Origin: a virus
Taxonomy: Duplodnaviria > Heunggongvirae > Uroviricota > Caudoviricetes
Length of the DNA stretch: 20,855 nt
Reading direction: 5' to 3' (one strand)
Virus record (IMG/VR): IMGVR_UViG_3300042691_014730
Coordinates: 1-20,855 of that record
Each line of letters begins with the position of its first letter. The first letter of the stretch is position 1. Made by a program: the position numbers and the translations under genes. Shown here piece after piece: positions 3,273 to 6,021 of this stretch. The notes under the pieces are model-generated. The model was not told where the DNA came from. It made no database searches and worked only from the letters and a program-made list of their open reading frames with translations.

Positions 3273-3289
3273 AGTTACTCCTATTGTTT

Positions 3290-3349
3290 GGACTCATCAG
3301 GATAGACCTAATCTATCTACGTCCCCTAATTCTAAGGGACGTTTCGTCC
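3290..3349 (-). ncRNA. hammerhead ribozyme 1 (type II)
   Basis: Minus-strand RNA: GGAC-GAAA-CGUCCCUU(AGAAUU)AGGGGACG-UA^GAUAGA(UUAGG)UCUAUC-CUGAUGA-GUCC. Full core (CUGAUGA, GAAA, GUA triplet); stem I 6 bp, stem II 4 bp, stem III 9 bp. Predicted cut between 3318 and 3317. Confidence 0.9.
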
Positions 3350-3421
3350 TTATCCCCTTCTAATCATTAAGAATTGTATTAGTGGTAGGGTTAAAAATAA
3401 TAATATGATTACATAATCCAT
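3350..3421 (-). CDS. 23-aa hydrophobic peptide ending at the 5' edge of hammerhead 1 (not in ORF track)
   Basis: MDYVIILLFLTLPLIQFLMIRRG; ATG overlaps the tandem TAA stops of the upstream gene; weak SD. Confidence 0.5.
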   Translation of the reverse strand: MDYVIILLFLTLPLIQFLMIRRG

Positions 3422-3423
3422 TA

Positions 3424-3738
3424 TTACCCAACCATTTTATTAGGATTAAATGCTTTAATAGGTTTTCTTTTTAATTGTTCTTTATTAGCTTCTACAAAAG
3501 CATCAATCTTATCAAGGTTAGCTTTAAGCTTCTCATATTGTTCAATAAACATATTAACTGGGAAGTTACCACCTAATCCTTTAATAGTTAAGCCACCACC
3601 TTTATTAACTTCTACCCTTACTTCTTCACGCACTAAGCTGTTAAGAATCCTTAATTGTTCTTGTTGTTTTTGAATTTCTTCTTTAAGAGCTTGTGCTTCT
3701 TGTTGTAATTGTTGTGCAGTTTTAGTTGATGTTGTCAT
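3424..3738 (-). CDS. coiled-coil + small beta/alpha domain protein, 104 aa
   Basis: AAGGAG SD; N-terminal Q/E/K-rich coiled coil; KGGGLTIKGLGGNFPVNMFIEQYEKL resembles, from memory, a widespread small bacterial/phage family (KGxVSVYGLGRFPVTLYxEQW). Confidence 0.8.
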   Translation of the reverse strand: MTTSTKTAQQLQQEAQALKEEIQKQQEQLRILNSLVREEVRVEVNKGGGLTIKGLGGNFPVNMFIEQYEKLKANLDKIDAFVEANKEQLKRKPIKAFNPNKMVG

Positions 3739-3784
3739 AAATACTCCTTTAGTGACGTTAAGTCACGTTGTTAATTGATTGTTC

Positions 3785-3838
3785 TGGTGTTTCGTCTTAT
3801 TAAGACTCATCAGCCTAGGTTAAATCCTAGGGACACCA
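3785..3838 (-). ncRNA. hammerhead ribozyme 2 (type III)
   Basis: Minus-strand RNA: UGGUGUC^CCUAGG(AUUUAA)CCUAGG-CUGAUGA-GUCUU(AAU)AAGAC-GAA-ACACCA. Canonical core, GUC triplet; stem I 6 bp, stem II 5 bp, stem III 6 bp. Predicted cut between 3832 and 3831. Confidence 0.95.
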
Positions 3839-3839
3839 A

Positions 3840-4132
3840 GGATAAGAGTACGTTACCTCATACTCCTATCCTAGTGATCCTCAGTATGCTGTTATCCTGT
3901 CCTAGTACAATAACCTAGGAGTTCTTATGGCATACCAAGGTACTCTAAGTTTTCTCGGTTTTTCCGAGCTATACCATATAGGTACTTAGAGTGAATGAAG
4001 TTACTTCTCGCTAAGATAGTTCTCGCTATCGAAGTCCATAACTCCCAACGGCTTATGTCTAAAGCAGTTACTATCCGTCTAGCCCAACAGTCAAGCTGTT
4101 AGCCCTTTTATAGTAACCTATGTCTTGTTACC
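3840..4132 (-). ncRNA. unassigned highly structured RNA (about 290 nt)
   Basis: ORF-free. Helices read by eye: 4117-4110/4074-4067 (8 bp), 3992-3984/3950-3942 (9 bp closing a 3-way junction), 3940-3930/3889-3879 (11 bp enclosing a possible pseudoknot), 3871-3861/3850-3840 (11 bp). Confidence 0.65.
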
Positions 4133-4417
4133 TTAGATAAACGCTATACCATTTTCAACTTTAGTCAAGGTTATAGCTTGTTTATTAAGTAACTTCTTAA
4201 GTCTATTGACCTCGGCGATTAGTTTTTCTTTAGAGCTTTTGCCCTTAAGATAGAAGCCTCGTCTAAATAAACTTATATCACTAGGGCAGTTAGTTTTAAC
4301 GTACCCTGAGTTAAACACTTTTTTGTTAGCTATAACGTCTTGACGTTTTATAGCGTTTTGTTTATACCCTACATTAGCCCTTTTACAAGCTAATGCAGTT
4401 TTACTTAATGTTCTCAT
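4133..4417 (-). CDS. basic hypothetical protein, 94 aa, possibly nucleic-acid binding
   Basis: ORF track; AGGAG SD 11 nt upstream, inside hammerhead 3 stem III; about 21 K/R versus 5 D/E by my count. Confidence 0.75.
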   Translation of the reverse strand: MRTLSKTALACKRANVGYKQNAIKRQDVIANKKVFNSGYVKTNCPSDISLFRRGFYLKGKSSKEKLIAEVNRLKKLLNKQAITLTKVENGIAFI

Positions 4418-4430
4418 AAGTTAAGTTACT

Positions 4431-4486
4431 CCTATTTCGAGTCAAAAGACTCATCATCAGTAGGGACTCAATTATCCCTAGATAGG
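4431..4486 (-). ncRNA. hammerhead ribozyme 3 (type III, extra U between A9 and G10.1)
   Basis: Minus-strand RNA: CCUAUC^UAGGGA(UAAUUGAG)UCCCUA-CUGAUGA-U-GAGUC(UUUU)GACUC-GAA-AUAGG. AUC triplet; stem I 6 bp, stem II 5 bp, stem III 5 bp. Predicted cut between 4481 and 4480. Confidence 0.8.
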
Positions 4487-4556
4487 GAGAGTTAGTGTTA
4501 GCTAACTCCCAATTAGGTTACTAAGTAATATTATAGCGAGAGAGATTTTTATAATA

Positions 4557-4754
4557 TTAGCTAGCATGGTTATCCATTTTTTCAAGTTCCCATAATTTCT
4601 CATAAGCACTATAGTGTGAATAACAAATTATTTCTTCTTTTTCAGATTCATGATTTTTAAAGTATATTACTTTATACAAGTTATTATACTTATCATAGAT
4701 TATTTTACATAAGAATCCAGTATTTACATTAGTTACTTGTTTAAGAAATATCAT
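4557..4754 (-). CDS. hypothetical protein, 65 aa; first ORF of the leftward arm
   Basis: ORF track; GGAG SD. Confidence 0.75.
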   Translation of the reverse strand: MIFLKQVTNVNTGFLCKIIYDKYNNLYKVIYFKNHESEKEEIICYSHYSAYEKLWELEKMDNHAS

Positions 4755-4993: not shown

Positions 4994-5035
4994 AGCTAAG
5001 TACCTGATTTCTCGTAGGTGAATATAAGAACACCC

Positions 5036-5184
5036 ATGCGTGTGTTTAATACCTGCGTGTGCGTAACGTGTGCGTGTAGCGTGTGTGCGAGCGTATGTGT
5101 GCGTATGCACGAGCGTGTGCGTAACGTGTGTGCGCATAATGCGTGCGTAGGCGTGTGTGGGTGCGTTTGCGTAGGGGGGTAGGG
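5036..5184. repeat. alternating purine/pyrimidine (GT/GC) low-complexity tract ending in a G-run
   Basis: Mostly GTGTGCGT-type sequence; 18-bp GCGTGTGCGTAACGTGTG at 5055 and 5113; GGGGGGTAGGG at 5174-5184. Confidence 0.9.
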
Positions 5185-5409
5185 ACGTTTCAGGATATGC
5201 CTGACATTGACCGAGTACACTCTCCCACTTTACCCTCTCAACTATAGAAACTCTCCAACACTCACCTACTTATCCTTCAACGCTTCTAATAACAACTCTT
5301 AGTACATTAGCCCTTAAAACGCACAGAAATAGGGTTATTTAACATCGTATTAGCACACCCTAATACTTAGTATAAAAGTCATTACTCAACGTTTAAAAGG
5401 ATTCTGACG

Positions 5410-6021
5410 ATGATTAGTATATTGGACGTTAGTATTATTAACCAGATTCCTAAAGAAGGCATAATAGCCTTTATAAACGATTCTGATAAAAAGGTATTAA
5501 TCGTACAGGGTAGTAATTTATTAGCTCTCCTAGGGCGTATTATGAGCGAATTACAACAAGGTATTTATACACACCAAGAGGTTATAGAAGATTATAATAA
5601 ACTAAAGATAGTAGTTCTAGAAACACAATCGGACATCACAATTAGGTACTTACAGATGTCATACTGGTATGATTACTTCGTTAATAACGGTTATACGCTG
5701 TATTCAAAGACTAAGTACTCAGTATATAGGGTAAGATCAAGAATCGTGTATAAACGAATAGGAAGCACGTTAATGAACGTAAATGTTGAACTAGTTAGTA
5801 CTAGAGGTAATACGATATTAGTAGGAGTATTTAAAACAATGTTAGAAGCTAATGAGTTTATAGAAACTTATTACAGTCAAACTACTAATCAGTATAAGCT
5901 TCCAATACTAGCTAATAACGATTTGACAAAAGCTTACTACCAAGATAAAACGAGTCGAAGGAGCGAAGCGACTGACGCAGTTACCTATGGGTTGGTAGAT
6001 AGTACGTTAGAAAAAATCTAA
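5410..6021 (+). CDS. hypothetical protein with degenerate GIY-YIG-like N-terminal domain
   Basis: AAGGA SD; GIIAFIN..KKVLIVQGSNL..L ... IVVLE ... YWYDYF.NNGY follows the GIY-YIG pattern but lacks the catalytic residues. Confidence 0.6.
   Translation: MISILDVSIINQIPKEGIIAFINDSDKKVLIVQGSNLLALLGRIMSELQQGIYTHQEVIEDYNKLKIVVLETQSDITIRYLQMSYWYDYFVNNGYTLYSKTKYSVYRVRSRIVYKRIGSTLMNVNVELVSTRGNTILVGVFKTMLEANEFIETYYSQTTNQYKLPILANNDLTKAYYQDKTSRRSEATDAVTYGLVDSTLEKI

Follow-up and report, generated by a model that had tools for sequence, protein, structure and literature searches.

A conserved multi-domain RNA fold on the minus strand of a ribozyme-punctuated operon in two phage lineages

Several large structured RNAs of bacteria and phages are orphans, among them GOLLD, ROOL, OLE, raiA, and HEARO. 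In phage T7, the early polycistronic transcript is cut between genes by the host RNase III, and the upstream product keeps a protective 3' stem-loop. Clustered hammerhead ribozymes that flank single genes have been described in prophages (Perreault et al., 2011; PMC3088659). The RAGATH candidates are structured RNAs located beside hammerhead- or twister-associated genes, and most of them still lack an explanation (PMC11061315). The locus described here resembles the operons of Perreault et al. (2011; PMC3088659) in that three co-oriented hammerheads, of types II and III, are predicted to cut a phage message into gene-length pieces. In those operons the ribozymes flank protein genes; here, a conserved non-coding domain of 301 nt follows the gene within the excised piece, which is hyper-structured overall. 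It is a new RNA family inside a known ribozyme-punctuated operon setting. The purpose of phage hammerheads has been an open question since 2011, and here the excised piece is a hyper-structured RNA of fixed length.

The window, the whole stretch of DNA that was analyzed (20,855 nucleotides), is the first 20.9 kb of the complete 84,855-bp (84.9-kb) genome of an uncultured freshwater phage from IMG/VR (IMGVR_UViG_3300042691_014730), which has direct terminal repeats. Its terminase showed less than 30% identity to anything among 50,697 GenBank phages, and no close cultured relative was found there. The genes from approximately position 5000 down to 139 lie on the minus strand and form a leftward early-type operon, and rightward packaging and head genes start at 5410. 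In the divergent region between the two operons, positions 5030-5210 contain GC-rich CACACGC-like repeats in an otherwise AT-rich genome; this repeat run produced a spurious weak match to mir-297. Following the leftward order, the minus strand contains an ORF of 65 aa (4754..4557); hammerhead 1 (4429..4488), of type III with an extra U after A9 (RF00008, 25.7 bits, E 0.013); ORF94 (4133..4417), which codes for a basic orphan protein of 94 aa; the structured RNA (301 nt, 4132..3832), between the ORF94 stop and the hammerhead 2 cut; hammerhead 2 (3784..3839), also of type III (RF00008, 46.7 bits, E 1.4e-8, full length 1-54, with a gathering score of 48.5); ORF104 (3738..3424); a type II hammerhead (~3285-3355), read by eye; and, beyond it, small ORFs and a DNA ligase gene. 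Several co-oriented self-cleaving ribozymes at gene boundaries define a ribozyme-punctuated phage operon, and this is the arrangement found in the window. The same layout (hammerhead 1, ORF94, RNA, hammerhead 2, ORF104, and type II hammerhead) is present in a second uncultured phage, IMGVR_UViG_3300042691_015935 (G001/L005; 84.4 kb, with terminal repeats), hereafter the relative, for which near-identical lake contigs also exist. Its homologues of ORF94 and ORF104 are 73 and 63% identical, respectively, and the RNA is single-copy in each genome.

Hammerhead 2 shows the CUGANGA and GAAA cores, the three stems, and the GUC before the cut that characterize type III hammerheads, and it is predicted to cleave between 3832 and 3831, generating the 3' end of the RNA. 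A sequence-only reading of this DNA had proposed that the RNA receives its 3' end from this ribozyme, and this agrees with the conservation of both the ribozyme and the cleavage triplet GUC in the two phages; the RNA boundary that it had placed at 3840 was moved to the cleavage site, 3832/3831. The hammerhead 2 of the relative (L005 3579-3640) was recognized by eye by its canonical CUGACGA core, its GUC cut, and three covarying stems, and was reported neither by cmscan at E<=5 nor by a genome search with RF00008, which reflects a sensitivity gap. Hammerhead 1 is predicted to cleave between 4481 and 4480, which would create the 5' end of a 649-nt unit, and the 3' strand of its stem III overlaps the Shine-Dalgarno sequence of ORF94. 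In the relative (G001) it scored 25.4 bits, with compensatory changes in stem II between the phages. The type II hammerhead (L005 ~4080-4145 in the relative) has an open stem II of only 4 bp and a cut after GUA; it scored 13-15 bits with Rfam models and has intact cores, and in the relative all changes in stems I and III are compensated.

Right after hammerhead 2, positions 3745-3783 of the window (minus strand; L005 3641-3680) contain AATTAACAACG, a 5-bp hairpin that covaries between the phages (GTGAC..GTCAC versus GTAGC..GCTAC), and then the Shine-Dalgarno sequence of ORF104. Since TTAACAAC is the box proposed as late promoter of the window phage and it stands with the covarying hairpin ahead of ORF104, this gene may have its own promoter or a 5' stabilizer. 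Separately, two unrelated T4-like contigs found via the ligase (L045, ~5391-5470; L046, ~4108-4190) carry, in a gap upstream of an HSP20 gene, a compact hammerhead-like core made of CUGACGAG, a GC stem, and CGAAAC.

The minimum-free-energy fold of 4132..3832 had -94.1 kcal/mol, versus -68.9 +/- 5.0 kcal/mol for 200 dinucleotide shuffles (z -5.04, compared with -3.5 for the plus-strand reading). This comparison had been set beforehand as a refuting check, and 0 of the 200 shuffles folded as well. The proposal of a structured RNA on the minus strand had relied in part on G-U pairs limited to that strand, and eight such pairs were counted. The fold comprises five domains, P1 to P5, with 12 helices and invariant junctions and loops, all of them on the minus strand. 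In the P1 domain (4066..4118), a 9-bp P1 (GUUACUAU/AUAGUAAC) encloses P1a, of 2 bp, and P1b, of 7 bp, and the junctions AAAA and AGACGG are invariant between the two phages. The conserved single-stranded linker J3 (UUAGACAUAA.CCGUUG; 4046..4065), identical at 18 of 21 positions, separates it from the P2 domain (3997..4045), in which the 8-bp helix P2 (GGAGUUAU/GUAACUUC; 4045-4038 with 4004-3997) is followed by an internal loop (GGA / CGAGAA), P2a, and P2b, the latter being a GAUAG/CUAUC hairpin capped by a second CGAGAA. The three-way junction (3942..3992) is built from P3, P3a (ACC/GGU, with the invariant loop UAUAU), and P3b. In the P4 domain (3879..3940), the 11 bp of P4 lead into a large internal loop that is conserved (AUAAGAAC / GGAUAAC), followed by P4a (UCCUAG/CUAGGA) with a 9-nt loop, and the 3' end module (3832..3878) contains J10, the 11-bp P5 hairpin, and an 8-nt tail ending at the cleavage site. 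All helices listed in the sequence-only reading, corresponding to P1/P1b, P2b, P3/P3a/P3b, P4/P4a, and P5, were found at their places and in the minimum-free-energy fold, and its inventory lacked the 8-bp P2. The H-type pseudoknot GUUAU/AUAAC that it had also proposed is not supported: the corresponding loop of the relative is AUUAA and the AUAAC is invariant, so that two of the five pairs are lost with no compensation. Its description of a novel phage non-coding RNA thus holds for the structure, the strand, the end made by hammerhead 2, and the absence of an Rfam 15 assignment, and is not supported for the pseudoknot.

Rfam 15 (4227 models) gave no match in 3832-4132 on either strand, at the gathering threshold or at E<=10, and only the flanking hammerheads scored; the models covered include the RAGATH motifs, GOLLD, ROOL, OLE, raiA, HEARO, twister, pistol, hatchet, and HDV-like ribozymes, and also introns, RNase P, 6S, Y RNA, and pRNA. 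The RNA copy of the relative likewise matched no Rfam family, and ARAGORN found 0 tRNA or tmRNA genes in the window. Homologues were sought at several levels. Comparison of the region with 50,697 GenBank phages by blastn gave no match; exact-motif scans of IMG/VR with four patterns recovered only the second phage lineage and its near-identical copies, the rest being chance hits; and scans of JGI/ENA metagenome contigs and of 185,579 GTDB genomes, with one pattern each, gave no third lineage. Searches anchored on the ORF94, ORF104, ligase, and terminase proteins led to the same single relative. From the wider phage family, three contigs found via the ligase (L040, L041, and L043) have nothing but the ligase in common with the two phages, and in them neither hammerheads nor, by nhmmer or the covariance model R1, a match to the RNA were found. 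Across all these searches, ORF94 and the RNA co-occur only in these two phages, and always adjacent.

The relative's sequence folds independently into the same 12-helix architecture (z -4.73 sense versus -1.64 antisense). The two copies were aligned manually, helix by helix, giving 80 pair columns in 12 helices, 74 of them comparable, with segments that reproduce both sequences exactly. In this alignment, the 74 comparable pairs comprise 38 without any change, 3 with a change on one side only, 32 in which both sides changed and still pair, and 1 broken pair at the end of a helix; thus, 73 of 74 are canonical in both phages. If the two sides changed independently, approximately 37 one-sided changes would be expected instead of 3 (chi-square 62, p 3e-15), and 32 of the 33 double changes are still canonical (p 1e-10 versus a chance of 4/9). 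Double compensations are distributed among P1 (1), P1b (5 in 7 pairs), P2 (2), P2a (1), P2b (1), P3 (5), P3b (4), P4 (5), P4a (5), and P5 (5). As a second check, the RNAalifold consensus was used as the model, from which P3 and P3b are missing because MAFFT misaligned them: 100% of its cells pair, versus 30-48% with slid partners, and double changes occur in 20 pairs, versus 0-4.

Stems and loops have evolved in different ways. Third codon positions are only 47% identical in ORF94 and 57% in ORF104, whereas core junctions and loops of the RNA are 88% identical (76/86 positions), a set that includes AAAA, AGACGG, UUAGACAUAA.CCGUUG, GGA, both CGAGAA, UAUAU, AUAAGAAC, and GGAUAAC. Since neutral sites are near saturation, this identity points to selection at the RNA level on the minus strand. 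Several small insertions and deletions separate the two copies, yet both measure 301 nt from the stop codon to the cleavage site. Within the early operon, which otherwise evolves fast, ORF94 and the RNA show the highest conservation. A decayed gene, a DNA-level signal, or chance could be invoked in view of the small number of lineages, which is all that speaks for such a non-RNA element; all six frames are closed in both copies, with 4-13 stop codons per sense frame, and the strand asymmetry, the G-U pairs, and the 32 compensatory pairs point to RNA, so that this explanation is refuted in practice. Comparison of the two sequences shows, or nearly shows, that 4132..3832 is a functional folded RNA under purifying selection, in which stems covary and loops are frozen, this being a two-lineage comparison below R-scape-grade statistics. 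We consider it firm that this is a new conserved multi-domain minus-strand RNA fold, known from two lineages.

A kink-turn of the Kt-7 type is made of a C helix, a 3-nt bulge, tandem sheared G-A pairs, and a 3b-3n A-G pair. Compared by eye with the Kt-7 consensus, the P2 internal loop fits in both phages, with CGA-GA-A as the bulged strand and G-GA opposite, and the pair closing its C helix covaries (G-C to C-G); judged by its sequence, the loop looks like a K-turn and is a candidate for one. The CGAGAA motif occurs twice, nine bases apart in both phages, in the P2 internal loop and in the P2b hairpin loop, and UAGAC is also found twice in the RNA. As a separate observation, GAGAAC/GAGAAG occurs in both phages at the start of ORF94 (AUGAGAAC; 4417-4410) and in both CGAGAA motifs (4025-4020 and 4010-4005), a sharing that could be autoregulatory mimicry or chance. 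Other candidates were discarded. By eye, a CCUUGGU repeat as anti-ribozyme, a pairing of P1 with the shared AGUAAC leader, and a pairing of the 5' tail with P1 are not conserved in the relative; the 3' strand of P5 as anti-Shine-Dalgarno of ORF94 was also rejected by eye, forming 9 bp here and 6 bp in the relative; and a CsrA sponge was rejected on finding merely two conserved unpaired GGA. The size, the number of helices, and the invariant junctions resemble those of large orphan RNAs suspected of catalysis, and the neighborhood is rich in ribozymes, as for the RAGATH candidates (PMC11061315), so that the domain might be a new large ribozyme, which could, for example, detach itself at the 5' end from the ORF94 message or act as a ligase. 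We regard this as very improbable: no match to twister, twister-sister, pistol, hatchet, HDV-like, group I/II intron, or RNase P models was obtained at E<=10, and an HDV-like fold of P1 to J3 was rejected by eye for its misfit to the nested double pseudoknot.

On the minus strand from 4417 to 3840 no ribozyme, promoter-like site, or terminator was found. Since nothing separates the RNA from the ORF94 coding region, the predicted product is an RNA of 649 nt containing ORF94 plus the structured domain, and the ribozyme-to-ribozyme unit of the relative measures 650 nt. The whole unit, coding part included, is hyper-structured in both phages (z -9.2 here and -7.7 in the relative, 20 shuffles each), unlike ORF104 (z -0.55), and a sliding scan confined the structure signal to approximately 4700..3600. 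Taken alone, the coding RNA of ORF94 also shows unusually strong structure (z -5.9 here and -3.3 in the relative); the two phages share some of its hairpins, and a few of the changes between them are compensatory or G-U-neutral. Codons 7-16 form a conserved 12-bp hairpin, in which 4 of 4 changes keep pairing. At the other end of the unit, no linker separates P5 from stem III of hammerhead 2 in either phage. The segment immediately 5' of P5, J10, is able to pair with the 3' tail, which is also the 5' strand of stem III; the relative retains this helix, one C-G pair being replaced by G-C. Before cleavage, the J10:tail conformer is isoenergetic with the native hammerhead (-37.0 versus -37.0, and -36.8 versus -36.8 kcal/mol in the two phages); after cleavage, J10 is the only partner of the tail within the cleaved 5' product. 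We infer from these predicted folds that the J10:tail helix probably serves product capture and protection of the 3' end, a regulatory role being a weaker alternative.

Such a regulatory role would make the domain a sensor of a protein or a small ligand, with the choice between J10:tail and stem III setting the cleavage rate of hammerhead 2 and tuning the coupling of ORF94 to the downstream genes. The pairing of J10 with the 5' strand of stem III in both phages, its one compensatory change, and the isoenergetic conformers are compatible with such a switch, and the conserved internal loops could form a binding pocket; but the native hammerhead lies at or within 0 kcal/mol of the minimum-free-energy fold with no ligand, product capture explains the same helix, and J10 is distant from the conserved loops. 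We consider a ligand-dependent switch improbable. A simpler possibility is that the domain and the structured ORF94 region have no specific partner and act as armor, prolonging ORF94 expression by resisting RNases specific for single strands as well as 3' exonucleases. This would account for a unit hyper-structured along its whole length, for hairpins placed directly against stem III in each of the type III hammerheads, and for a captured 3' tail, and it has a parallel in the T7 early mRNAs, which are stabilized by 3' hairpins left by RNase III. For protection, however, one hairpin like P5 suffices, and armor leaves unexplained the 88% identity of junctions and loops at near-saturated neutral sites, the exact conservation of length, and the repeated CGAGAA and UAGAC. 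We judge it unlikely, although it deserves serious weight.

The explanation that we favor, with a probability of about 0.4 for the scaffold reading as a whole, is that P1 to P4 form a protein-binding platform, with ORF94 as the candidate partner, in an early ribonucleoprotein excised by ribozymes. Cleavage by hammerheads 1 and 2 would release an RNA of 649 nt (4480..3832), with 5'-OH and 2',3'-cyclic phosphate ends, containing the hammerhead 1 body, the Shine-Dalgarno sequence, ORF94, and the 301-nt domain. P5 and J10 would serve the ribozyme punctuation: P5 would stack on stem III and, after cleavage, J10 would take the released tail, leaving a product that ends in a long closed hairpin, which would help the product to dissociate and protect its 3' end. 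P1 to P4 (~250 nt) would be a specifically folded scaffold, with the K-turn-like bend of P2, the two CGAGAA, and the conserved P3a and P4 loops, and would act as the platform. The most economical partner would be ORF94, translated in cis from this same, long-lived molecule, leading to an early-expressed ribonucleoprotein whose roles might be in host take-over or counter-defense. A role of the RNA as protein sponge or in anti-defense, also suggested by the sequence-only reading, is a guess.

ORF94 is truly coding, as indicated by identities to the relative of 0.81/0.83/0.47 at the three codon positions, and its product is very basic. No Pfam or PHROG family was found for it, nor any other homologue among 1.84 billion representatives; among 5.8 billion clusters, neither ORF94 nor ORF104 had a homologue beyond the second phage. 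AlphaFold2 gave a pLDDT of 42 and the ESM Atlas no usable model, and no RNA-binding fold was recognizable. The partnership of ORF94 and the RNA is therefore put forward as a hypothesis, circumstantially suggested by their adjacency and by their shared confinement to two phages; adjacency in two genomes is weak evidence.

The same excised RNA might also be circularized. A host RtcB, or the phage Pnkp and Rnl-type ligase, would seal the 649-nt fragment into a viroid- or Obelisk-like coding circle, to which the structured domain would give compactness and nuclease resistance. The ends left by the established hammerhead mechanism have suitable chemistry, both phages encode an RNA ligase domain (PF09414), the units measure 649 and 650 nt with extreme z-scores, and circular products, together with spliced ones, were raised for tandem phage hammerheads by Perreault et al. 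(2011; PMC3088659); those authors, however, searched for such products and detected none. Moreover, RtcB is absent from both phages, the predicted folds have no helix joining the two ends, and the junction would not rebuild a hammerhead. Sealing into a circle thus seems doubtful. In more distant members of the ~84-kb family (L040, 2225-3373; L041, 2207-3355), RtcB is encoded in the early operon upstream of the ligase and hammerheads were not found; the two hammerhead-bearing phages have an Rnl-type RNA ligase in place of RtcB. It is similarly doubtful that the entire 649-nt segment, beyond its 3' half, is a hyper-structured, self-excising, possibly circularized RNA machine encoding its own basic binding protein; if true, a phage would encode in its DNA an equivalent of the protein-coding viroid-like or Obelisk-like RNAs and deploy it during the first minutes of infection.

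Whichever its function, the excised RNA is a concrete object for asking whether excision yields a long-lived RNA or ribonucleoprotein, whether it is circular, and what it binds, and its non-coding half is constrained more strongly than the neighboring proteins. With T7 it shares intergenic cutting, and the role of the protective 3' stem-loop would be played here by P5 and the J10:tail helix; unlike in T7, where the sites are single hairpins without the multiple domains and the conserved loops of this RNA, cutting here is autonomous, by ribozymes. It is like the RAGATH candidates in being a conserved structured RNA beside hammerheads in a phage-type gene neighborhood and differs in being larger than most RAGATH motifs (~300 nt, 12 helices), in matching no RAGATH model, and, with respect to RAGATH-18, in having no TnpB-like nuclease nearby (PMC11061315). 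With Obelisks and viroid-like RNAs it has in common a predicted sub-kilobase, highly structured unit bounded by type III hammerheads and coding for a small homologue-less protein; unlike Obelisks, it is encoded by a dsDNA phage, it has two different hammerheads and not one unit-length repeat, and its predicted fold is branched and not rod-like (PMC10827157). Finally, it resembles GOLLD, ROOL, OLE, raiA, and HEARO in its many helices and invariant junctions and, for some of them, in the association with phages, and differs from them in matching no model, in being present in two lineages only, and in forming the tail of a coding RNA and not a separate gene. To this short list of orphan structured RNAs it adds a well-supported large fold, with 12 helices, 32 compensatory pairs, and a K-turn candidate.
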